From the NCBI GenBank assembly GCA_020638555.1, contig JACKII010000001.1:1287829-1351828 (forward strand): 64,000 nt of DNA. Reading direction: 5' to 3'. This document shows positions 2,762 to 35,250 of this stretch, in pieces. The notes beneath the pieces were generated by a model. It was not told the DNA's origin and made no database searches. It saw nothing but the letters and a program-made list of their open reading frames with translations. The stretch comes from Alphaproteobacteria bacterium. GTDB taxonomy: Bacteria; Pseudomonadota; Alphaproteobacteria; Bin95. The position numbers and the translations under genes are program-made. Within the stretch, counting starts at the first letter, position 1. Each line of letters starts with the position of its first letter.

Positions 2762-3739
2762 ATGAAGGTCCATGCAATCCGCTTCGCCAAGACCGGCGGC
2801 CCCGAGGTTCTGGAATGGCAGGAGGTCGAACTCGGCCAGCCGGGACCGGGCGAGGCGCTGGTGCGCAACAAGGCCGTCGGCCTGAACTATATCGACACCT
2901 ATCACCGTTCCGGCCTGTATCCGCTGCCGCTGCCCTCCGGCATCGGCCTGGAAGGCGCCGGCGTGGTCGAGGCCGTGGGCGAGGGGGTCACCAATGTGCA
3001 GGCGGGCGACCGCGTTTCCTATGGCACCGGCGCAATCGGCGCCTATGCCGAGGCCCGCGTCATGCCGGCGGCCAGCCTGCTGAAACTGCCGGACGCCATC
3101 CCGTTCGAGGCGGGGGCGGCGATGATGCTGAAGGGCATGACCGTCGAATACCTGCTGCACCGCACCTATGAGGTGAAGGCCGGCCAGACCGTGCTGTTCC
3201 AGGCGGCGGCGGGCGGCGTCGGCCTGATCGCCGGCCAGTGGCTGAAGGCGCTGGGCGTCACCGCCATCGGTACCGCCGGCGGCGCCGAGAAATGCGCGCT
3301 CGCCAAGGCGCATGGCTACGCTCATGTCATTGACTACACCAAGGAAAGCGTGCCCGAGCGCGTGCGCGAACTGACCGGCGGCAAGGGCGTGCCGGTGGTC
3401 TACGACTCCGTCGGCAAGTCGACCTGGGAAGGCTCGCTGGACTGCCTGAGCCCCCGCGGCCTGATGGTGAGCTTCGGCAACGCCTCCGGTCCGGTCGACG
3501 GCGTCAATCTGGGCATTCTGGGGGCCAAGGGCTCGCTTTACGTCACCCGCCCGTCGCTGATGGCCTACACGGGCACCCGTGCGGACCTGGAATTGTCCGC
3601 CGGCCGGCTGTTCGACATGGTCGCGGGCGGCAAGGTCGGGATCAAGATCAACCAGACCTACCCGCTGGCCGAGGCCGCCCAGGCCCATCGCGACCTGGAA
3701 AGCCGCAAGACCACCGGCTCGACGGTGTTCACGGTCTGA
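2762..3739 (+). CDS. qor: NADPH:quinone oxidoreductase (zinc-type alcohol dehydrogenase superfamily)
   Basis: 325 aa; MKVHAIRF..GGPEVLEW..ALVRNKAVGLNYIDTYHRSGLYPLP; AAGGVGL nucleotide motif; typical Qor length. Confidence 0.85.
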   Translation: MKVHAIRFAKTGGPEVLEWQEVELGQPGPGEALVRNKAVGLNYIDTYHRSGLYPLPLPSGIGLEGAGVVEAVGEGVTNVQAGDRVSYGTGAIGAYAEARVMPAASLLKLPDAIPFEAGAAMMLKGMTVEYLLHRTYEVKAGQTVLFQAAAGGVGLIAGQWLKALGVTAIGTAGGAEKCALAKAHGYAHVIDYTKESVPERVRELTGGKGVPVVYDSVGKSTWEGSLDCLSPRGLMVSFGNASGPVDGVNLGILGAKGSLYVTRPSLMAYTGTRADLELSAGRLFDMVAGGKVGIKINQTYPLAEAAQAHRDLESRKTTGSTVFTV

Positions 3740-3918
3740 TTCCGCGGCGCGTCCTCGGGGCGCGCCGCCCTCAACCCAATTTACCCTAGTGACTTGAAAT
3801 TGCGTGATATTCCGGGGTATCGGCCGCCGAAAACCCGGACGCCGCGGCAATTGACACGTCAGGCGCCGCCCCATACGGTGATCGTCACCCAATCATTCCG
3901 TCGAGATGTGCGCTTCGC

Positions 3919-5076
3919 ATGAGCCTGTCAGACGCTGCCTGGACGCAGTTGATTTCCGCCGCCCACACCTCCGGTCGCAAGGCGGCGCTGGCCATAACCG
4001 GCGGCGGCACCGGTGCGGTGGGGGAATTGTTGCGGATTCCCGGCGGGTCGCAGTTGTTGATCGAGGTGCAGGTTCCCTACAGCGAACAGGCGCTGGAGAC
4101 GTTCCTGGGGTTTGCGCCCGGCCAGGCGTGCAGCGCCGATACGGCGATCGCCATGGCGCAGAAGGCGCGGTTGCGGGCATCGGGGATGGTGGCGAGGGAT
4201 GCCGACCTCGTCGGGCTCGGGGCGACGGCGGCGCTTGTGAGCGACCGGCCGCGCCGCGGCGAACACCGATTTCATATCGCCTGCGTCGGAGCCGACAGCA
4301 TTGCCCATTGCACGGTCGTGCTGGCGAAGGGCCGGCGCGATCGGCCGGCGGAAGAGGCGCTGGTCGCCCGCGCGATCATTCTCTGGCTGGCGCGGGCCTG
4401 CGGCGTCGCCGCGCCGTCGCCGCAAAGTCTGCTCGACCCGGACGAACGCTTCGCCCAGGCGGAGGTTGCCGCCGCGGATAGGATCGACGCGCTCTTGGCC
4501 GGCAGTGTCGATCGGGTGACGGCTTTGCCCGACGGGCAATTGCTTCTGGCCTCGGCGCCGCCGGCGATGGTGATGCCGGGCTCGTTCAATCCGGTGCATG
4601 CCGGGCATGTTCGACTGGCCCAGGCGGCGTCGGACATTCAGCAGCAGCCCACGACGTTCGAAATTTCGGTGACCAATGTCGACAAGCCGCCGCTGACGGG
4701 CGACGTGGTCCGCCACCGTCTCCGGCAATTCGCCTGGAAATCGCCGGTCGAACTGACCCGGGCGCCCACCTTTCTGGAAAAGTCGCGGCTGTTCGCCGGC
4801 GCGACATTCGTTATTGGTGCCGATACGGCGGAACGCCTGGTGGCGGCAAAATACTATGACGACGACGAGGACCGCATGCACGCGGCCCTGGAGGAAATCG
4901 GCGGGTCCGGGGGAAGTTTCCTGGTGGCGGTGCGCGTTGATTCCGGCGGCCGTCTCATGACCCTGCGGGACATTCCCGTCCCGCACCGTTTCGCCGACCT
5001 GTTTCTGGAGATTCCCGAACACCGCTTCCGTCTGGATACGTCTTCGTCGGCGATCCGGCAGCAGGGTGACCGCTGA
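3919..5076 (+). CDS. two-domain protein: N-terminal CinA_C (PncC NMN-deamidase-like) domain fused to a NadD/NMNAT-like nucleotidyltransferase domain
   Basis: N-terminus aligns to CinA_C (AITGGGTGAVGELLRIPGGS..QVPYSEQALETFLGF..AIAMAQKAR) but ESCTGG is replaced by ITGGGTG; C-terminal half has the cytidylyltransferase HxGH motif PGSFNPVHAGH and VIGADT. Confidence 0.55.
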   Translation: MSLSDAAWTQLISAAHTSGRKAALAITGGGTGAVGELLRIPGGSQLLIEVQVPYSEQALETFLGFAPGQACSADTAIAMAQKARLRASGMVARDADLVGLGATAALVSDRPRRGEHRFHIACVGADSIAHCTVVLAKGRRDRPAEEALVARAIILWLARACGVAAPSPQSLLDPDERFAQAEVAAADRIDALLAGSVDRVTALPDGQLLLASAPPAMVMPGSFNPVHAGHVRLAQAASDIQQQPTTFEISVTNVDKPPLTGDVVRHRLRQFAWKSPVELTRAPTFLEKSRLFAGATFVIGADTAERLVAAKYYDDDEDRMHAALEEIGGSGGSFLVAVRVDSGGRLMTLRDIPVPHRFADLFLEIPEHRFRLDTSSSAIRQQGDR

Positions 5077-5208
5077 GAGGTCCGTTCGTTCGCCGGTGCC
5101 GCCTTTCGCGTAAGGGGCTGGCGGAGCCGGGCCCCAGGCGGCGGGTGAAGGAATTTCCGACTCTCCCGACAACACTCGACGGTTTGCCCTTGCGCGCCCG
5201 GAATTTGG

Positions 5209-5333: not shown

Positions 5334-6347
5334 ATGACCCGCTGGATGAGTGGCTTCGCGGCCGCCGCCCTGTTGCTTTTCACCACCATCCGTCCCGCCG
5401 CCGCCGAGACGTTGGAAATCGGCTATATGCCGATCCTGCCGGTTTCCCAGGTGTTCGTCGCGCTCGAGGAAGGGTGGCTGGCGGATGCCGGCATCGAGCC
5501 GAAGTTGATCCAGTTCCAGAACGGGCCCGCCATGGTCCAGGCGCTGCTGGCCGGCCAGCTCGACGTGGCCCATTTCGGCATCGGCCCGGCCATGGTCGCC
5601 CGCGCCAAGGGCGTCGACCTGAAGGTGGTGGCGTCCAGCACGGTCGAACAGATCAGCATTGTCGCCCTGCCGGACCTGGCGGCGGCTTTCGATGCCGGCC
5701 CGCCCGAAACCGCGTTCGCCCGATTCGCCGAAACCCATGGCCGCAAGCCGGTGATCGCCACCTTCCCGCTCGGCTCGGTGCCGGAGACGGTGCTGCACTA
5801 CTGGGTCGAACGCCAACTCGGCATTTCGCGCGATACCATGACCGTCGTTTACCAGGGCGCGGCCCAGGTGCAACAGGCGCTGCTGACCGGCGCGGTCGAC
5901 GGTGCGGCCATTCTGGAGCCGGTGGTGGCGCTGACGCTCGACCGGGTCGATGGCGCGAAGGTGGTGGCGAAGGGTTCCGAGCTTTTTCCCGGCCAGCCCG
6001 GCGCCGTGCTGGCCGTGCGCGAGGCGCTGATCGCACGCGCGCCGCAACTGGTCCAGGCCCTGGTCGCGGCCCAGATCCGCGCCACCGAAACGCTCCGCAA
6101 CGACCCGGAGGGAGCCGCCGCGGCTGTCGGCAAATATGTCGGTGGCGGCCGCATGCCGAAGCCCGTGGTGGTCCAGGCGCTCCAGAACAGCCAGCAGGCG
6201 TTCGTCGACGACCCGGACTACATCATCCCCGGCACCCGCACCATGCACGACTATCAGGCCGAGGTCGGCACGTTGAAGGCGAAGGTCGATCTGGACGCGC
6301 TGTTCGACACCCGGTTCTACAAGGCCGCAAAGGCCGCGGCGAACTAG
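5334..6347 (+). CDS. ABC transporter periplasmic substrate-binding protein, NitT/TauT (nitrate/sulfonate/bicarbonate) family
   Basis: signal peptide MTRWMSGFAAAALLLFTTIRPAAA; SsuA/TauA-like fold motifs (IGYMPILP...GQLDVAHFG). Confidence 0.8.
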   Translation: MTRWMSGFAAAALLLFTTIRPAAAETLEIGYMPILPVSQVFVALEEGWLADAGIEPKLIQFQNGPAMVQALLAGQLDVAHFGIGPAMVARAKGVDLKVVASSTVEQISIVALPDLAAAFDAGPPETAFARFAETHGRKPVIATFPLGSVPETVLHYWVERQLGISRDTMTVVYQGAAQVQQALLTGAVDGAAILEPVVALTLDRVDGAKVVAKGSELFPGQPGAVLAVREALIARAPQLVQALVAAQIRATETLRNDPEGAAAAVGKYVGGGRMPKPVVVQALQNSQQAFVDDPDYIIPGTRTMHDYQAEVGTLKAKVDLDALFDTRFYKAAKAAAN

Positions 6348-8661: not shown

Positions 8662-8994
8662 TCAGTGCGAGATCATCCACGGTCTGGCCGTCGGGAAGGA
8701 TTTGGAGCCGTCCGGCCGGCTGAGCGTCTTGCGGGACGCGGTCCGGCCGCCGCTGCAACAGGCGCAGCCGGGGCCATGACTGGAAAGGCGTTTCGGACTG
8801 TCCGCCGCGCGCTCGTTGGTGGCGTGGGCCTGGCGCTGGACAGCGTCCATGCGCAGCACCCGCGGCACCGTCAGCATGACCCGCGGCGCGTCGGCGCCGC
8901 AGTCGGGGCAGGCGCAGGGGCGGTCGTACTCGGCCATGGGGCGCATGGCCGAGAACACGCCGTCCTGCTCGCACCGATATTCGTAGAGGGGCAT
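8662..8994 (-). CDS. fmdB: FmdB-family zinc-ribbon putative regulatory protein
   Basis: MPLYEYRCEQDG...CPDCG...CACCSG Cys-ribbon; directly downstream of the formamidase gene, as in fmdA-fmdB loci. Confidence 0.7.
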   Translation of the reverse strand: MPLYEYRCEQDGVFSAMRPMAEYDRPCACPDCGADAPRVMLTVPRVLRMDAVQRQAHATNERAADSPKRLSSHGPGCACCSGGRTASRKTLSRPDGSKSFPTARPWMISH

Positions 8995-9009
8995 GGGCGA
9001 TGGCTCTCC

Positions 9010-10185
9010 TTACAGGTCCGGGGCGAGCGGCACGTCGACGGAGCCGTCGAGATATTTCACCGGGCCGTTCGCGTTCGGCATCAGGTCCCATTCGAAGATG
9101 TCGGTCGGCAGCCAGAGCGTGGCGCAGGCGTTGGGAATGTCGACCACGCCCGAGATATGCCCTTGGCACGGCGCGGTGCCGAGAATGGCATAGGCCTGGG
9201 CGCCGGAATAGCCGAACTTCTTCAGATACTCGATGGCATTCAGGCAGGCTTGGCGATAGGCGACGTGGACGTCCAGATAGTGTTGGGTGCCGCTTTCGTC
9301 GACGGAAATGCCTTCGAAGATCAGGAAATCGTCGTATTTCGGCGTGATCGGCGACGGTTTGAAGATCGGGTTCTTCACGCCGTATTTGGCCATGCCGTCC
9401 TTGATCAGGTCCACCTTCAGGTGCAGCCAGCCGGCCATTTCGATGGCGCCGCAAAACGTGATCTCGCCGTCGCCCTGGCTGAAATGCAGATCGCCCATGG
9501 AGAGGCCGGCGCCGTCGACATAGACCGGAAAATACACCTTGGAGCCGCGCGACAGGTCCTTGATATCGCAGTTGCCGCCATGCTCGCGCGGCGGCACGGT
9601 GCGCGCGCCCTCGGCGGCGGCCGCCGCCTTGGCGTCGCCCTTGAGGCGGCCCATATGCGCGGTCGGGCCGCCGTCGGGCAGGGCGGCGAGCGGCGGCACG
9701 CGGCCTGGGTCGGTGTCGAACAGCGCCTTTTCGCGCGCGTTCCACAGGTCGAGCATTTTGCGATCCGGCAGGCAGCCGATCAGGCCCGGATGGATCAGGC
9801 CGGCATATTTCACGCCCGGCACGTGGCGCGAGGTGGTGAACATGCCGTGGAAATCCCAGATCGACTTCTGCGCCAGCGGAAAATGCTCGGTCAGGAAGCC
9901 GCCGCCGTTCTGCTTCGAAAAGAAACCGTTGAAGCCCCAAAGGCTCTCGTCCTTGGCGCCGATGTCCAGGATTTCGACCACCAACAGGTCGCCCGGCTTG
10001 GCGCCCTTCACGCCGATCGGGCCGGAGAGATAGTGCACCTGCTCCAATTCCACGTCGCGGACGTCGGCCGCATCGTCGTTGTTGGCGATCTGGCCGCCGG
10101 TCCAGTCGTAGGTTTCGACCTTGAAATCATCGCCCGGCGCGACCCAGACGCCGATCGGGATGTCCGGGTGCCAGCGATTGTGCAC
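9010..10185 (-). CDS. fmdA: formamidase (acetamidase/formamidase family); the N-terminal ~25 codons lie in another frame
   Basis: HNRWHPDIP...GGNCDIKDL...FSQGDGE motifs of the FmdA_AmdA family; the conserved leader TPIIEVNLSE is encoded just upstream in a different frame (about 10190-10240). Confidence 0.85.
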   Translation of the reverse strand: MHNRWHPDIPIGVWVAPGDDFKVETYDWTGGQIANNDDAADVRDVELEQVHYLSGPIGVKGAKPGDLLVVEILDIGAKDESLWGFNGFFSKQNGGGFLTEHFPLAQKSIWDFHGMFTTSRHVPGVKYAGLIHPGLIGCLPDRKMLDLWNAREKALFDTDPGRVPPLAALPDGGPTAHMGRLKGDAKAAAAAEGARTVPPREHGGNCDIKDLSRGSKVYFPVYVDGAGLSMGDLHFSQGDGEITFCGAIEMAGWLHLKVDLIKDGMAKYGVKNPIFKPSPITPKYDDFLIFEGISVDESGTQHYLDVHVAYRQACLNAIEYLKKFGYSGAQAYAILGTAPCQGHISGVVDIPNACATLWLPTDIFEWDLMPNANGPVKYLDGSVDVPLAPDL

Positions 10186-10293: not shown

Positions 10294-10989
10294 TCAGACG
10301 GACAGGAAGCGGGAGACCTTGCGCCTCGTCGATGCGGCGCGCGCGGCGCTTCGTGCACGAATTCGCCGTTTTCGATCACGAGCACGCGGTCGGCGACGTC
10401 GAGCGCGAAGCGCAGCACCTGCTCCGAGACGACGATCGGCGAGGCCGCGCTGGTCGCGGATGCGCTTCAAGGTGCGCGCCATTTCCTTGATGATCGACGG
10501 CTGGATGCCCTCGGTCGGCTCGTCGAGCAGCAACACCTTGGGGTCGGACGCCAGCGCGCGCGGCGATGGCGAGCTGCTGCTGCTGGCCGCCGAGAGATTG
10601 CCGCCGCGGCGGGACTTCATCTCCAGCAGCACCGGGAACAGCTCGTAGATGCTCCTCGGGCTGACCGCGGACTTGCCGGTGGCGGTCAGGCCGGTCTCCA
10701 CATTCTCCTGCACCGTCATGGTGGAGAAGATTTGCCGGCCCTGGGGCACATAGGCGATGCCGTTGGCGACGCGCTGATAGGGCTTCAGCCGGGTGACCTC
10801 GGTGCCGTCGACGCTGACCGCGCCGGTCTTGGCCGGGACGATGCCGATCAGGGTTTTCATCAGCGTGGTCTTGCCCATGCCGTTGCGGCCCATGATGGCG
10901 ACGATCTCGCCCGGCTCCACCTGGAAGTCGAGGCCGTGCAGCACCTCGGATTCGCCATAGGCCGCGCGCAGGTTGGCGATGGAAAGCAT
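10294..10989 (-). CDS. urea/amide-type ABC transporter ATP-binding protein (UrtE-like), with local frameshifts
   Basis: Walker A GRNGMGKTT; DEPTEGIQPSII; the signature LSGGQQQQLAIARA is readable only in a shifted frame (read as LSAASSSSSPSPRA); the C-terminal ~40 aa (LRFALDVADRVLVIENGEFV) are in another frame. Confidence 0.65.
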   Translation of the reverse strand: MLSIANLRAAYGESEVLHGLDFQVEPGEIVAIMGRNGMGKTTLMKTLIGIVPAKTGAVSVDGTEVTRLKPYQRVANGIAYVPQGRQIFSTMTVQENVETGLTATGKSAVSPRSIYELFPVLLEMKSRRGGNLSAASSSSSPSPRALASDPKVLLLDEPTEGIQPSIIKEMARTLKRIRDQRGLADRRLGAGAALRARRRRPRARDRKRRIRARSAARAASTRRKVSRFLSV

Positions 10990-11000
10990 GGCGGTCTCCT

Positions 11001-11747
11001 TTAGTGTCCCAGATAGACTTCGACGACCTTCGGGTCGGCCTGCACGTGCTCCATCGAGCCCTCGGACAGCACCTTGCCCTGATGCAGAACGGTGACGCGG
11101 GTGGCGATGTCCTCGGCGAACTTCATGTCATGCTCGATCACGATCACCGAGCGGTCGCGGACAATGCGCTGTAGCAACTCCGCGGTCTTGACCCGCTCGG
11201 CCACCGACATGCCGGCCACCGGCTCGTCTAGCATCAGCAATTGCGGGTCCTGGATCAGCAACATGCCGATTTCGAGCCATTGCTTCTGGCCATGGCTGAG
11301 AAAAGCGGCCTTTTCGTTCAGGGCGCTGTCCAGGAAGATGGTCTCGGCCACCTCGCGGATGCGCTCGATCACCGCCGCGTCGCGCTGGAAGAACAGCGCG
11401 CCGAAGACGCCGTGGCCCTTGGGGTATGAAATCTCCAGGTTTTCGAACACGGTCAGGTCCTCATAGACCGACGGCGTCTGGAATTTGCGGCCGACGCCGG
11501 CATGGACGATCTGGTCCTCGCGCAGGGTCAGCAATTCCTGGCCCTTGAACTTGACCGAGCCGGCGGTGGCCTTGGTGCGGCCGCAGATCAGGTCCAGAAC
11601 CGTGGTCTTGCCCGCACCGTTCGGGCCGATGATGACCCGGCACTCGTTCGGGTCGATATAGAGGCTGAGATCGTCCACCGCCTTGAAGCCGTCGAACGAG
11701 ACCGTGAGCCCTTCCACCGCCAGCAGGAATTCGGATGCGTCTGCCAT
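11001..11747 (-). CDS. urea/amide-type ABC transporter ATP-binding protein (UrtD-like)
   Basis: 248 aa; Walker A GPNGAGKTT; LSHGQKQWLEIGMLL; LLMLDEP. Confidence 0.85.
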   Translation of the reverse strand: MADASEFLLAVEGLTVSFDGFKAVDDLSLYIDPNECRVIIGPNGAGKTTVLDLICGRTKATAGSVKFKGQELLTLREDQIVHAGVGRKFQTPSVYEDLTVFENLEISYPKGHGVFGALFFQRDAAVIERIREVAETIFLDSALNEKAAFLSHGQKQWLEIGMLLIQDPQLLMLDEPVAGMSVAERVKTAELLQRIVRDRSVIVIEHDMKFAEDIATRVTVLHQGKVLSEGSMEHVQADPKVVEVYLGH

Positions 11748-11759
11748 GGGAACTCCCTC

Positions 11760-12893
11760 CTACTCGGCCGGCGCGCGGACGGTGGGCGCGGACGCCTTGT
11801 CGGCGGCGCGTTGCGGCAGCAGCTTGCGCAGATTGGGGGCGATATACTGGTCGTAGATGCCGGCCAGGCCGTTCGGGAACACCAGCACCACGGCGATGAA
11901 CAACCCGCCGAGGCCCAGGAGCCAGATTTCGGGAAAACTCTCGGAGAAGGTGGTCTTGGCCCAGTTCACCAGCAGCGCGCCATAGACCGCGCCGAAGATC
12001 GAAAGCCGTCCACCGACGGCGCAGAAGATCACCATCTCGATCGAGGGCACGATGCCGACGAAGCTCGGCGACATGAAGCCGACCTGCAACGTGAACATCG
12101 CCCCGCCGATGGCGGCGAAGGCGGCGCCGACGCAGAAGACGAAGATCTTGAAATTGGCCACGTCATAGCCGGAAAAGCGCACCCGGTCCTCCTGGTCGCG
12201 CATGGCGATCAGGATGCGGCCCAGCTTCGACTTGGCGATGAAGTGGGCGGCGAACAGGCAGGCGAACAGCAGCGCGCCGTTGACGAAATAGAGGACGGTC
12301 TTGGCCTCGTCCGTGCGGATGTCCCAGCCTTGCAGCGTGCGCAGGTCGGTGATGCCGTTGACGCCGCCGGTATAGCCCTGCTGGCCGATGATCAGGATGG
12401 TGAGGATCGCGGCCACGGCCTGGGTGATGATGGCGAAATAGACGCCGCCCACCCGCCGCTTGAACATGGCGACGCCGATGACGAAGGCGAAGAGGGTCGG
12501 CACGGCCACGACCGCGAACAGGGTGAAGTGCAGGCTGTAGAAGGGCTGCCACCAGGACGGCAAGGCCGTGAGCTGGTTCCAGTCCATGAAGTCGGGGATG
12601 CCCGGCGTGGACTGGATCTTGGTGGCCTCGGGCGTGGAGGCTTCCAGCTTCAGGAACATGGCCATGCAATAGCCGCCCAGGCCGAAGAAAATGCCCTGGC
12701 CCAGGCTCAGAATGCCGCCCGCGCCCCAGCACAGCACCAGGCCGACCGCGACGAAGGCATAGGTCAGGTACTTGCCGAACAGGTTGAGGCGGAAGGAGTC
12801 GAGGGCGGCCGGCAGCACCAGGAAAATGACGGCGGCGAGGACGGCGAAGCCGACCATCTCCGACAGGGTGAAATAGCGGTTGCGCGCAAGCAT
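11760..12893 (-). CDS. urea/amide-type ABC transporter permease (UrtC-like)
   Basis: 377 aa multi-TM branched-chain-type permease with long N-terminal extension, typical of UrtC. Confidence 0.8.
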   Translation of the reverse strand: MLARNRYFTLSEMVGFAVLAAVIFLVLPAALDSFRLNLFGKYLTYAFVAVGLVLCWGAGGILSLGQGIFFGLGGYCMAMFLKLEASTPEATKIQSTPGIPDFMDWNQLTALPSWWQPFYSLHFTLFAVVAVPTLFAFVIGVAMFKRRVGGVYFAIITQAVAAILTILIIGQQGYTGGVNGITDLRTLQGWDIRTDEAKTVLYFVNGALLFACLFAAHFIAKSKLGRILIAMRDQEDRVRFSGYDVANFKIFVFCVGAAFAAIGGAMFTLQVGFMSPSFVGIVPSIEMVIFCAVGGRLSIFGAVYGALLVNWAKTTFSESFPEIWLLGLGGLFIAVVLVFPNGLAGIYDQYIAPNLRKLLPQRAADKASAPTVRAPAE

Positions 12894-31303: not shown

Positions 31304-32413
<1,110 letters not shown>

Positions 32414-32598: not shown

Positions 32599-35250
32599 AT
32601 GGCGACGACCAGCGACATCCGCGCGACCTTCCTCAACTATTTTGCCAAGAACGGGCACGAAATCGTGGATTCGAGCCCGCTGGTGCCGCGCAACGATCCA
32701 ACCCTGCTGTTCACCAATGCCGGCATGGTGCAGTTCAAGAACGTGTTCACCGGCGTCGAACATCGGCCCTATGCCCGCGCTACCACCTCCCAGAAATGCG
32801 TGCGCGCGGGCGGCAAGCACAACGACCTGGAAAATGTCGGCTACACCGCCCGCCATCACACCTTTTTCGAGATGCTGGGCAATTTCTCGTTCGGCGACTA
32901 TTTCAAGGATGCCGCGATCGAGTTCGCCTGGAACCTGGTGACCGGCGAATTCGGCCTGCCCAAGCAGAAGCTGCTGGTCACCGTTTATTCCGAGGACGAA
33001 GAGGCGGCGCGGCTCTGGAAGCGGATTGCCGGCCTCTCCGAAGACCGCATCATCCGCATTCCCACCAGCGACAATTTCTGGGCCATGGGCGACACCGGCC
33101 CCTGCGGTCCGTGCTCCGAAATCTTCTATGACCACGGGCCGGAGATCTGGGGCGGCCCGCCCGGCTCGCCGGAGGAAGACGGCGACCGTTTCATCGAGAT
33201 CTGGAACCTGGTCTTCATGCAGTACGAGCAGGTGACCAAGGAGCAGCGGGTCGACCTGCCGCGACCGTCCATCGACACCGGCATGGGTCTGGAACGCATC
33301 GCCGCCGTGCTGCAGGGCAAGCACAACAATTACGACATCGACCTGTTCCGCGCCCTGATCCTGGCCTCGGCCGAGGCGACCGGCGTCGATCCGGACGGGC
33401 CGCAGGCGGCCTCGCACCGGGTTATCGCCGACCATCTGCGCGCCGCGAGCTTTCTGATTGCCGACGGCGTCCTGCCCTCGAACGAGGGCCGGGGCTATGT
33501 GCTGCGCCGCATCATGCGCCGCGGCATGCGCCACGCCCATCTGCTGGGCGCGCAGGACCCGCTATTGTACCGGCTGGTGCCGGAACTGGTGCGCCAGATG
33601 GGTACCGCCTTCCCGGAACTGGTTCGCGCCCGGCCGCTCATCACCGAAACGCTGAAGCTGGAGGAAGAGCGCTTCAAGCAGACGCTCGGCCGCGGCCTGC
33701 GCCTGCTGGAGCAGGAGACCGACAGCCTCGGCGCCGGCGACCGGCTCTCCGGCGATGTCGCCTTCCGCCTGTACGACACCTATGGCTTTCCGCTCGACCT
33801 GACCCAGGACGTGCTGCGCGCGCGCGAGATCGCGGTCGACACCGATGGGTTCGACGCCGCCATGGAACGGCAGCGGGCCGAGGCACGGGCCGCCTGGGCC
33901 GGCTCCGGCGAGGCGGCGGACGAGGCGATCTGGTTCGACCTGCGCCAGGAACTGGGCGCGACCGACTTTCTCGGCTATGGCACGACCGAGGCCGAGGGCG
34001 TGGTGGTCGCCCTGGTGGCCGACGGCCAGCGGGTCGAGCGGGCGGAGGCGGGCCGGCAGGTGGCGATCCTCACCAACCAGACCCCGTTCTATGGCGAGTC
34101 CGGCGGCCAGGTCGGCGACACCGGCCGCATTGTCGGCGAGGATGGGCGCGCCACCGTGCGCGAGACCCAGAAAAGGCTGGGCGACCTGTTCGTTCACCTC
34201 GCGACGGTGGAGGAGGGGACGCTGGCCGTCGGCGATGCGGTCGCGCTCAGCGTGGATACGGCCCGGCGCAACGCCATCCGCCGCAACCACTCGGCCACCC
34301 ACCTGCTGCACGCAGCGCTGCGCCGCGCCCTCGGCGATCATGTCGCCCAGCGCGGCTCGCTGGTGACGCCGGATCGGCTGCGCTTCGACATCTCCCACCC
34401 CAAGCCGGTCGACGCCGACGAACTCGCCCGGATCGAGGCGGAGGTGAACGAGCGCGTGCGCCTGAACGCGCCGGTCACCACCCGCCTGTTGCCGACGGAG
34501 CAGGCGATCGAGGCCGGCGCCATGGCGCTGTTCGGCGAGAAATACGGCGACGAGGTGCGGGTGGTCACCATGGGCGGCGACGACCCGGACGACGCCGACC
34601 GGCCCTATTCGGTGGAACTCTGCGGCGGCACCCATGTGCACCAGACCGGCGACATCGGTGCGTTCCTGGTGGTGAACGAGGGGGCGGTGGCCGCCGGCGT
34701 GCGCCGGTTGGAAGCGCTGACCGGCCAGGCCGCCCAGGCCTATACGGCGGAGCGGCTGCGCCTGCTGGAGCAGGCGGCGCAGCAACTGCGCACCACGCCG
34801 GACCATGTTGCCGAGCGCATCGCGGCCCTGCTGGACGAGCGCCGCAAGCTGGAACGCGAAATCGGCGACCTGCGTCGCCAGCTCGCCACCGGTGGCGGCG
34901 GCGCCAAGCCGGAGGTGCAGGAGGTCGCCGGCATGAAGTTCGCCGCCCGCAAGCTGGCGGACGTGCCGGCCAAGGATCTGCGCGGCATGGCCGACGAGGT
35001 GAAGAAGCAACTGGGCTCCGGCGTCGTCGCCATCGTCACCGTGGTCGAGGGCAAGGGCTCGCTGGTGGTCGGCGTCACCGACGACCTGAAGGACACGGTC
35101 AGCGCGGTCGACCTGGTGCGGGCCGGCGCGGCCGCCATGGGCGGCAAGGGCGGCGGCGGCCGTCCCGACCTGGCCCAGGCCGGCGGCCCGGATGGCGCCA
35201 AGGCGGACGATGCGCTGGCTGCTATCGCTGCCGCCATGGGCGGGGCCTGA
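32599..35250 (+). CDS. alaS: alanine--tRNA ligase
   Basis: 883 aa; [35 protein letters not shown], HxxxH editing motifs, C-terminal DHHA1. Confidence 0.95.

Follow-up and report, generated by a model that had tools for sequence, protein, structure and literature searches.

A gene at positions 3919-5076 on the forward strand of a 64,000-nucleotide stretch of alphaproteobacterial DNA (contig JACKII010000001.1; this whole stretch is called the window below) encodes a two-domain protein, in which an N-terminal domain of the CinA_C/PncC fold is followed by a C-terminal nucleotidyltransferase domain resembling NadD/NMNAT. The family to which it belongs joins two known folds related to nicotinamide adenine dinucleotide (NAD), one of them catalytically degenerate, and most likely acts in a variant of known NAD salvage. 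The reading favoured here, to which a probability of about 45% is given, is that the protein would be an adenylyltransferase for mononucleotides of the nicotinamide mononucleotide (NMN) type, with a non-catalytic, ligand-binding CinA-like domain, and would serve as an accessory cofactor enzyme. An earlier note made from the sequence of the window had proposed a single-polypeptide fusion of a CinA_C-like with a NadD/NMNAT-like domain, and this proposal is borne out by Pfam, by profile searches of the Protein Data Bank (PDB), by an AlphaFold2 model compared by Foldseek and by full-length homologues.

Domain architecture and fold

The open reading frame (ORF) runs uninterrupted from ATG to stop over 385 amino acids (aa) plus the stop codon. 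In the window protein taken alone, the Pfam profile CTP_transf_like (PF01467) is matched at residues 219-307 with 23.3 bits against a cut-off of 21, and CinA (PF02464) at residues 25-87 with 16.6 bits, below the cut-off of 23.5. Among 47 diverse family members, 45 match CTP_transf_like and 21 match CinA (E<=0.01). One relative, P0245, exceeds the Pfam CinA threshold, over the whole model and with 30.2 bits. The earlier note had named these two profiles; PF01467 is found above its cut-off, and PF02464, sub-threshold in the window protein, is recognised in some of its relatives. A profile of the family retrieved CinA structures from the PDB at E = 0.003 and, as the best match for the C-terminal domain, NadD (8AIH) at E 5.6e-5; PPAT and human NMNAT1 were also found. 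The NCBIfam models gave only sub-threshold NadD and PPAT matches for the window protein, and in the 47 members the weak matches were most often to the NadD-type models TIGR00482 (23/47) and NF000843 (22/47), ahead of PPAT (8/47) and an FAD-synthase/RibF-related model (1/47), so that within PF01467 the NadD type is nearest.

The AlphaFold2 model was built from 129 diverse homologues and reached a predicted local distance difference test (pLDDT) score of 91.8 and a predicted template modelling score (pTM) of 0.67, where 31 close homologues alone had given an unusable model with pLDDT 43. When this model was compared with the PDB by Foldseek, the top 11 matches were CinA/PncC chains, including 2A9S, 6MR3, 4CT8/4CTA, 5VU3 and 5KOL; chain 2a9s_B was matched by the N domain at E 2.6e-5, with probability 1.00 and a template modelling (TM) score, normalised on the target, of 0.71. 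The C-terminal half was closest to Mycobacterium abscessus NadD (5deo_A, E 1.5e-4, TM 0.49), followed by PPAT and ATP sulfurylase. The model divides the protein into a CinA_C-like domain (aa 1-170; 3919-4428), a linker subdomain (aa 171-214; 4429-4560) and the nucleotidyltransferase domain (aa 215-385; 4561-5073), which agrees with the limits of about 20-180 and 215-385 given by the earlier note. In the linker, the predicted secondary structure is strand-helix-hairpin and a PDG motif (204-206) is conserved. No PF00994 (MoCF/COG1058) match was found by Pfam in the window protein, whose sequence starts straight with the CinA_C-like domain. In longer relatives the only extra domain found was a tetratricopeptide repeat (TPR) fusion, which is uninformative. 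Neither the window protein nor four diverse relatives had a match in PADLOC-DB, and on this result membership of a known anti-phage defence system was rejected.

Loss of the deamidase residues and conservation of the ligand anchors

Active NMN deamidases are defined by nine sequence blocks (PMC3855486). In Agrobacterium tumefaciens CinA (AtCinA), S31 and K63 constitute a Ser/Lys dyad and the exchanges S31A and K63A each abolish activity (PMC5384747), and for Thermus thermophilus CinA (TtCinA) an alternative mechanism acting via Lys301/Thr340 has been described (PMC4246079). In the window protein, block P-I (AESCTGG in PncC) is replaced by AITGGGTG (aa 25-32; 3991-4014), so that the absence of ESCTGG, noticed earlier, is confirmed; T27 occupies the position of the catalytic Ser31 in the profile alignment to 2A9S. 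Across 129 sequences this position is T in 51, A in 51 (40%), S in 26 and G in one. Block P-III (YxNxxK) reads YSEQAL (aa 54-59; 4078-4095), in which, by alignment to TtCinA and AtCinA, the Tyr is kept and the catalytic Lys has become Leu59. At this Lys63 position the 129 bacterial sequences have L (74), M (43), F (11) or V (1), the phage and long forms have T, and Lys is never present. The position of Thr105/Thr340 is an invariant Gly (G99 in the window) in an ungapped loop register against 2A9S and by counting against E. coli PncC, the register being taken from sequence and not from three-dimensional superposition. Block P-VI, S/T-G-I/V-AGPxGG with its Thr105/Gly106, is thereby replaced in the window by G99-L-G-A-T-A-A-L-V-S-D. 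The whole family-specific loop, GLGATAALVSDRPRRGEHR (aa 99-117; 4213-4269), stands in place of the PncC blocks TGIAGPxGG and KPVGTV with the family consensus GxGCTAxxxTDRPKRGxHR, in which every subfamily keeps G99, T103, G114, H116 and R117, and it is followed downstream by the motif KGxRDRxxEE. Judged by its residues, the N domain should be unable to act as a PncC-type NMN deamidase, as the family throughout lacks both the Ser/Lys dyad and the Thr on which the Lys/Thr mechanism depends.

The residues that hold the ligand have had a different fate. In TtCinA, Gly284 and Ser286 hold the phosphate of nicotinic acid mononucleotide (NaMN) by their backbone, together with Arg377 and Tyr296, and the ribose is held by Ala343 and Gly344 (PMC4246079). 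Block P-II (G-A/S-S) is kept as PGGS (aa 41-44; 4039-4050), where G46/S48 of PncC correspond to G42/S44, invariant in all subfamilies; likewise Y58 of PncC corresponds to the invariant Y54 and G120 to the invariant G114. The phosphate-binding Arg of block P-VIII (R145 in AtCinA, Arg377 in TtCinA) is R140, conserved in 127/129 sequences. It lies in KGRRDRPAEE (aa 137-146; 4327-4356) together with the family-specific K137, R142 (129/129) and E145; K137, G138 and R142 recur in every subfamily. R113, H116, R117, K137 and R142 are kept even in the phage and long forms, and the N domain has gained an invariant basic/His cluster (R113, H116, R117, K137). Since the phage homologue departs from the family at E49G, D109L and R140D, the universal residues of the N domain are mainly glycines, S44, Y54, R113, H116, R117, K137 and R142, a combination that is typical where phosphate is bound.

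It is concluded that the N domain probably retains the ancestral pocket as a binding site for a phosphorylated ligand and would not deamidate NMN by known chemistry. This is close to the second option of the earlier note, that a nicotinamide nucleotide is bound without being deamidated: the conserved phosphate and ribose anchors are consistent with it, and the option as such stays unproven. All motifs quoted in that note were found at their positions in the ORF translation, among them LLRIPGGS (aa 37-44), QVPYSEQALETFLGF (aa 51-65) and AIAMAQKAR (aa 76-84), all on the forward strand.

The nucleotidyltransferase domain

The C domain is invariant across bacterial, long and phage forms at G221, F223, P225, H227, H230, K256, R267, K288, G300, D302, R306, F334, R339, S375, S376 and R380. 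The HxGH ATP-binding motif is PGSFNPVHAGH (aa 220-230; 4576-4608), aligned with the corresponding motifs of NadD, PPAT and NMNAT, and the second, ISSTxxR-type ATP-binding motif is SSSAIR (aa 375-380; 5041-5058), aligned with ISSTxIR of NadD and NMNAT. Between them lie the family signature SVTNVDKPP after strand 2 (aa 250-258; 4666-4692; within ISVTNVDKPPL, 249-259), which contains the invariant K256, and the segment VIGADTAERLVAAKYY (aa 298-313; 4810-4857), which starts with VIGADT (298-303) and comprises the GxD motif together with R306 and two adjacent aromatic residues, Y312-Y313. With these motifs the C domain holds the full ATP-binding and catalytic equipment of HIGH nucleotidyltransferases, and due to their intactness it is probably active.

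The substrate site is less readily compared. When the family profile was set by hhalign against the single E. coli NadD or PncC sequence, only the HxGH region was aligned or the probability was low. In NadD and NMNAT a Trp stacks on the pyridine ring (W117 in E. coli NadD, W169 in human NMNAT1). In a MAFFT alignment of low-confidence register, W117-Y118 of the E. coli enzyme are paired with the conserved Y312-Y313, in a region which HMMER and hhalign leave unaligned.

Size and distribution of the family

Thousands of relatives were found in a search of 5.8 billion proteins. The nearest 120 are 72-85% identical over the full length, mostly measure 384-400 aa and come from metagenome-assembled genomes (MAGs) annotated to several alphaproteobacterial families. 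P0001, labelled hypothetical and derived from an Alphaproteobacteria MAG, is 100% identical to the window protein. A HMMER scan of 1.84 billion cluster representatives (clusters at 50% identity) returned 4251 clusters at E<=1e-3 and at least 913 at E<=1e-30; the best 150 representatives nearly all span query residues ~5-383, their own lengths being ~375-400 aa. With one genome scanned per species, a relative turned up in at least 582 species genomes, and the sequence pattern E[LI]S[VI][TVA]NVDK was used to pull relatives from genomes. About 150 cluster representatives, about 240 homologues and the 80 best genome loci were seen in full, and the homologues so seen are nearly all ~380 aa long, bar a few fragments and longer variants. 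This full-length coverage identifies the fusion as one conserved polypeptide rather than two genes merged into one. In the listed homologues the coding sequence is neither split nor interrupted by a stop codon between the domains, which would have pointed to the artefact considered in the earlier note.

According to source names, the members come from Alphaproteobacteria annotated as Stellaceae, Acetobacteraceae and Hyphomicrobiaceae, from Chloroflexota including Dehalococcoidia and marine (Tara) lineages, and from Planctomycetota (Gemmataceae, Bythopirellula). Viral relatives comprise an uncultured Caudovirales phage protein (BFVD A0A6J5RR79), matched over the whole model at E 4.9e-28, a 383-aa homologue in the 485-kb huge phage LR745208.1 (L097:7878-9029) and, in a giant-virus bin (IMG/VR GVMAG contig, L096:1746-3221), a form of 491 aa that is extended at its N terminus by a hydrophobic stretch and falls in a 420-490-aa subfamily of unnamed metagenomic proteins. 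Near the phage copy in LR745208.1, ligase-like ORFs were noticed by eye.

The members already stand in databases by the thousand under automatic labels such as "hypothetical", "NMN deamidase PncC" or "nicotinic acid mononucleotide adenylyltransferase". Of the two enzymatic labels, that of a deamidase is almost certainly mistaken and that of an adenylyltransferase unproven. No description of the fusion architecture was found in a full-text literature search, and no NCBIfam family, PADLOC model or solved structure was found for it, which agrees with the statement of the earlier note that this architecture had not been described.

Promoter and genomic neighbourhood

A sigma-70-like promoter candidate, TTGACA-N17-TACGGT, was read from the sequence on the forward strand at 3851-3879, 40 nt before the ATG; a stricter consensus promoter scan of the window did not call it. 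It has diverged from the block TTGACT-N17-CACCGT which, with a ~30-nt leader ending in CTTCGGACCACACACGCACC-ATG, forms a conserved upstream block of ~75 nt at 78 alphaproteobacterial loci (alignment A8, L008-L157) with differing neighbours. In the -10 box CACCGT, A at position 2 is invariant and T at position 6 is at least 90% conserved across the 78 orthologues. An inverted repeat, GTCCGAA...TTCGGAC, straddles the -10 box with its 5' arm inside the promoter spacer, and its covariation as an RNA stem is mixed and unconvincing; given both points, a structured leader RNA is unsupported. We read the block as a putative sigma-70-type promoter and the gene as a probable monocistronic unit; the block has the look of an operator or of a promoter that moves together with its gene.

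In the window, the gene is preceded by a zinc-dependent alcohol dehydrogenase-type oxidoreductase (2762-3739), which we take to resemble quinone oxidoreductases, and followed by an NMT1-type ATP-binding cassette (ABC) substrate-binding protein (5334-6347); both are unrelated. An operon partner in the clade of the window was sought by clustering the neighbours at 80 alphaproteobacterial loci and rejected, as even the most widely shared neighbours, generic short-chain dehydrogenases/reductases, reached no more than 11 loci. A wider survey covered 91 loci (80 metagenome loci obtained via the family consensus, ten others and the window) with 69 upstream and 76 downstream neighbours, and showed a heterogeneous context. 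In a low-GC (32%) marine clade (L166, L168, L169, L170, L173, L175), where the gene is about 31-34% identical to those of other clades, a photolyase/cryptochrome-like ORF of ~500 aa was seen by eye in the flanks, along with an alpha/beta-hydrolase (Pfam Abhydrolase, upstream at 4/69) and a ROK/glucokinase gene downstream (Pfam ROK, 5/76).

No NadD or PncC paralogue was found in the window with E. coli queries, though a window of 64 kb cannot show genome-wide absence. In E. coli, pncC lies directly upstream of recA. By eye, the N-terminal sequences of the forward-strand ORFs 31304-32410 and 32599-35247 resemble RecA and AlaS, and no cinA/pncC-like ORF is evident next to the RecA-like one. On the reverse strand, a formamidase/acetamidase gene (8662-10185; Pfam FmdA_AmdA, E 1e-177) stands with an FmdB-type zinc-ribbon gene; adjoining this pair, ORFs at 10294-12893 resemble the ATPase and permease of a branched-chain/urea-type ABC transporter, the formamidase and FmdB genes being the ones checked with Pfam. 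An antisense ORF of 415 aa (3928-5175, reverse strand) spans the whole fusion gene. The 68% G+C content most likely accounts for this ORF, which was dismissed because all homologues found and both domain folds belong to the forward strand; it illustrates that ORF length is an unreliable guide in this window.

Function and alternative explanations

In the favoured reading, the C domain would adenylylate a mononucleotide at its phosphate, with ATP as the donor of AMP. The substrate would most probably be NMN or NaMN, and the product NAD+ or nicotinic acid adenine dinucleotide (NaAD), because pyridine mononucleotides are the only known ligands of both parent families. The CinA-like domain would be a non-catalytic binder of NMN, NaMN or a related phosphorylated ligand, with a role either in substrate capture and hand-over or in allosteric control. 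A conserved sigma-70-like promoter of its own and the lack of a conserved neighbour in the alphaproteobacterial clade fit a stand-alone salvage or homeostasis function and not a pathway operon. Viruses often carry NAD-salvage genes, and the full-length viral relatives were counted in favour of an NAD-type role.

Several observations weigh against this reading. The NadD equivalog cut-offs are not reached (21.8 against 112.45 bits and 16.8 against 240 bits; TIGR00482, NF000843 and others). The mononucleotide-binding centre of the C domain is not aligned to NadD by HMMER or hhalign, and therefore the substrate is deduced from family resemblance only. The N domain has family-invariant polar residues (H16, E49, D109, R110, H116, R117, K137, R142, E145) at a density greater than a mere binding module predicts, and these could mark a new active site. 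No Rfam family, and hence no riboswitch for NAD, flavin mononucleotide (FMN) or another ligand, was found upstream of the gene in the window or at 25 loci. In several clades outside the Alphaproteobacteria, moreover, the adjoining genes are of a flavin type and not of an NAD type. The commonest upstream neighbour, Flavin_Reduct, occurs at 6/69 loci, all in one marine Chloroflexota clade (L004:6414-6989, L005:6237-6830, L089:5397-5978, L100:4391-4981, L102:22-576, L165:732-1343), and the pairing persists over 49-85% protein identity even where the downstream genes vary; in L005, L089, L100 and L102 a nuoA-N operon lies downstream. At two loci of another clade (L098 and L099:5541-5990), a PNPOx_N/Pyridox_ox_2 gene, itself preceded by an Acyl-CoA_dh_2-type gene, ends 10 bp 5' of the fusion gene. 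Flavin_Reduct and PNPOx-like proteins share the FMN-binding split-barrel clan. The commonest downstream neighbour is UbiD (6/76), in lineages 33-43% identical to one another. Four of these loci form one clade (L088:7174-10226, L092:7278-10311, L094:7153-10131, L151:761-2215): in the first three a series of UbiD, UbiA and a UbiX-like flavoprotein begins 7-120 bp past the gene, and L151 ends within UbiD. The remaining two are L164:3970-4806, from a 32%-GC lineage 33-38% identical to the others, and the alphaproteobacterial L132:5144-6877.

These neighbours are too rare to define the function of the family; as they recur, a flavin, prenylated FMN (prFMN) or quinone link was kept as a rival. The C domain would then adenylylate an FMN-type mononucleotide, or pyrophosphorolyse its product in reverse (FMN and flavin adenine dinucleotide, FAD, or prFMN), the remodelled CinA-like pocket would hold FMN, and the protein would serve flavin reductases, two-component monooxygenases or UbiX/UbiD systems. 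Flavin_Reduct, PNPOx-like and UbiD(-UbiA-UbiX) genes adjoin the gene in separate clades, and a larger aromatic ring would be well accommodated by the hydrophobic residue at the Lys position and, in the C domain, by the aromatic YY pair. However, each association is found at fewer than 10% of the surveyed loci and none in the clade of the window, where 80 loci have no conserved neighbour, and NadD is nearer than FMN adenylyltransferases by both sequence and fold, with the RibF-related model matched by a single member and the RibF-type chain 3op1 retrieved at E 0.056. Flavin reductases and Nuo use NAD(P)H too, so that these contexts fit an NAD role as well, and the Rfam result extends to FMN riboswitches. 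The link is considered unlikely. That the family is an accessory enzyme of flavin or prFMN metabolism and not of NAD salvage, which would explain its placement beside flavin reductase and UbiD-UbiA-UbiX in Chloroflexota and others, is regarded as quite unlikely.

The density of charged and His residues in the N domain, absent from canonical PncC, also invites the idea that the CinA-like domain has acquired new catalysis, e.g. that it hydrolyses or repairs pyridine nucleotides which have been damaged or modified, via H16/E49/D109/H116/K137/R142/E145, and that the C domain adenylylates the product. Strong purifying selection on both domains (72-85% identity among alphaproteobacterial MAGs) and a domain order that would parallel consecutive steps are in keeping with such a bifunctional enzyme, but no known catalytic motif can be recognised in the N domain, and the exchanges E49G, D109L and R140D in the phage homologue leave a universal set of the phosphate-binding kind. 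This explanation is considered quite unlikely.

It is improbable that the protein is a non-enzymatic sensor or regulator, a pseudoenzyme whose two domains merely bind NMN, NAD or ATP and which controls another protein or acts in a chaperone-like manner as some NMNATs do. The catalytic degeneration of the N domain is compatible with it, and moonlighting and weak activity have been reported for yeast Pof1 and other NMNATs (PMC13191266, PMC12470169); against it, the ATP motifs of the transferase are invariant in bacteria, phage and long forms, which is unexpected for a pure binder, and neither a domain for binding DNA or a partner nor a conserved partner gene came to light. Least credible is the channel from NMN to NaAD first proposed in the earlier note, a bifunctional NMN deamidase/NaMN adenylyltransferase: although the two domains represent consecutive steps of the pyridine nucleotide cycle (PMC4246079) and the JGI pipelines label members PncC or NadD, the residues needed under either deamidase mechanism are missing family-wide (Lys63 never present, Ser31 position Ala in 40%, Thr105 replaced by Gly, with AtCinA K63A and S31A inactive) and blocks P-I, P-III (its Lys) and P-VI deviate from those that define active deamidases, so that channelling by deamidation is unsupported.

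A large and strongly conserved family, spread over soil Alphaproteobacteria, marine Chloroflexota, Planctomycetota, a huge phage and a giant-virus bin and with no curated family found for it, deserves attention, and the residue analysis corrects its bulk mis-annotation as PncC or nicotinate-nucleotide adenylyltransferase. If the favoured reading of an NMN-type adenylyltransferase with an NMN-binding pseudo-deamidase is true, a new route of NMN recycling that bypasses deamidation would follow, as well as a clean case of a catalytic domain reused as a ligand-binding module. If the flavin/UbiD link were true, it would hint at an unknown step in the handling of flavin or prFMN cofactors.

Comparison with known systems

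The fold of the N domain is that of PncC/CinA_C proteins (E. coli PncC/YgaD, AtCinA 2A9S, TtCinA 4CT8; TM as given above), with which the fusion family shares PGxS of block P-II, the Tyr of P-III, the Gly of P-VII, the phosphate Arg of P-VIII, and MAxxA with the terminal amphipathic helices. It differs from them in lacking Ser31, Lys63, Thr105 and the COG1058 domain and in being joined to a nucleotidyltransferase, and the window protein remains under the Pfam CinA threshold. E. coli YdeJ (5KOL) and YfaY are likewise of the CinA_C fold; their active-site blocks are altered and they do not deamidate NMN (PMC3855486), and their structural similarity to the N domain of the fusion family is comparable (5kol, 5vu3, Foldseek). 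Their residues have changed in the reverse sense: YdeJ keeps AESCTGG and the Lys and lacks GxS and Arg145, whereas the fusion family has kept GxS, Tyr and Arg and lost Ser, Lys and Thr; moreover, YdeJ is single-domain and the fusion family two-domain.

With NadD/NMNAT (PF01467) the C domain has in common the HxGH, ISSTxxR and GxD motifs and a Rossmann-like fold. The resemblance is at the motif level only (~18% identity) and far under equivalog cut-offs; the fusion family has its own signatures (SVTNVDKPP, APTFxEK and, in the low-confidence MAFFT register, YY instead of WY) and carries a CinA-like domain at its N terminus, and it lacks conserved neighbourhoods such as a housekeeping gene should have. 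The closest characterised relative of the C domain may be yeast Pof1 (YCL047C), a single-domain protein of ~258 aa; this kinship is a tentative lead. Pof1 is a PF01467-type, NMN-specific enzyme of low activity in which the motifs T/HxxH and SxxxxR are present and the Trp that other NMNATs conserve is missing (PMC13191266, PMC12470169), and the fusion family likewise has Tyr at that place in the low-confidence MAFFT register.

Bifunctional fusions are known in NAD recycling, namely COG1058-PncC (CinA), NadM-Nudix (Synechocystis slr0787) and NadR (PMC3680494). The design principle is alike, with two NAD-recycling modules in one polypeptide, and it is the pair of modules that differs, being here CinA_C and a NadD-like nucleotidyltransferase, one of the two degenerate.

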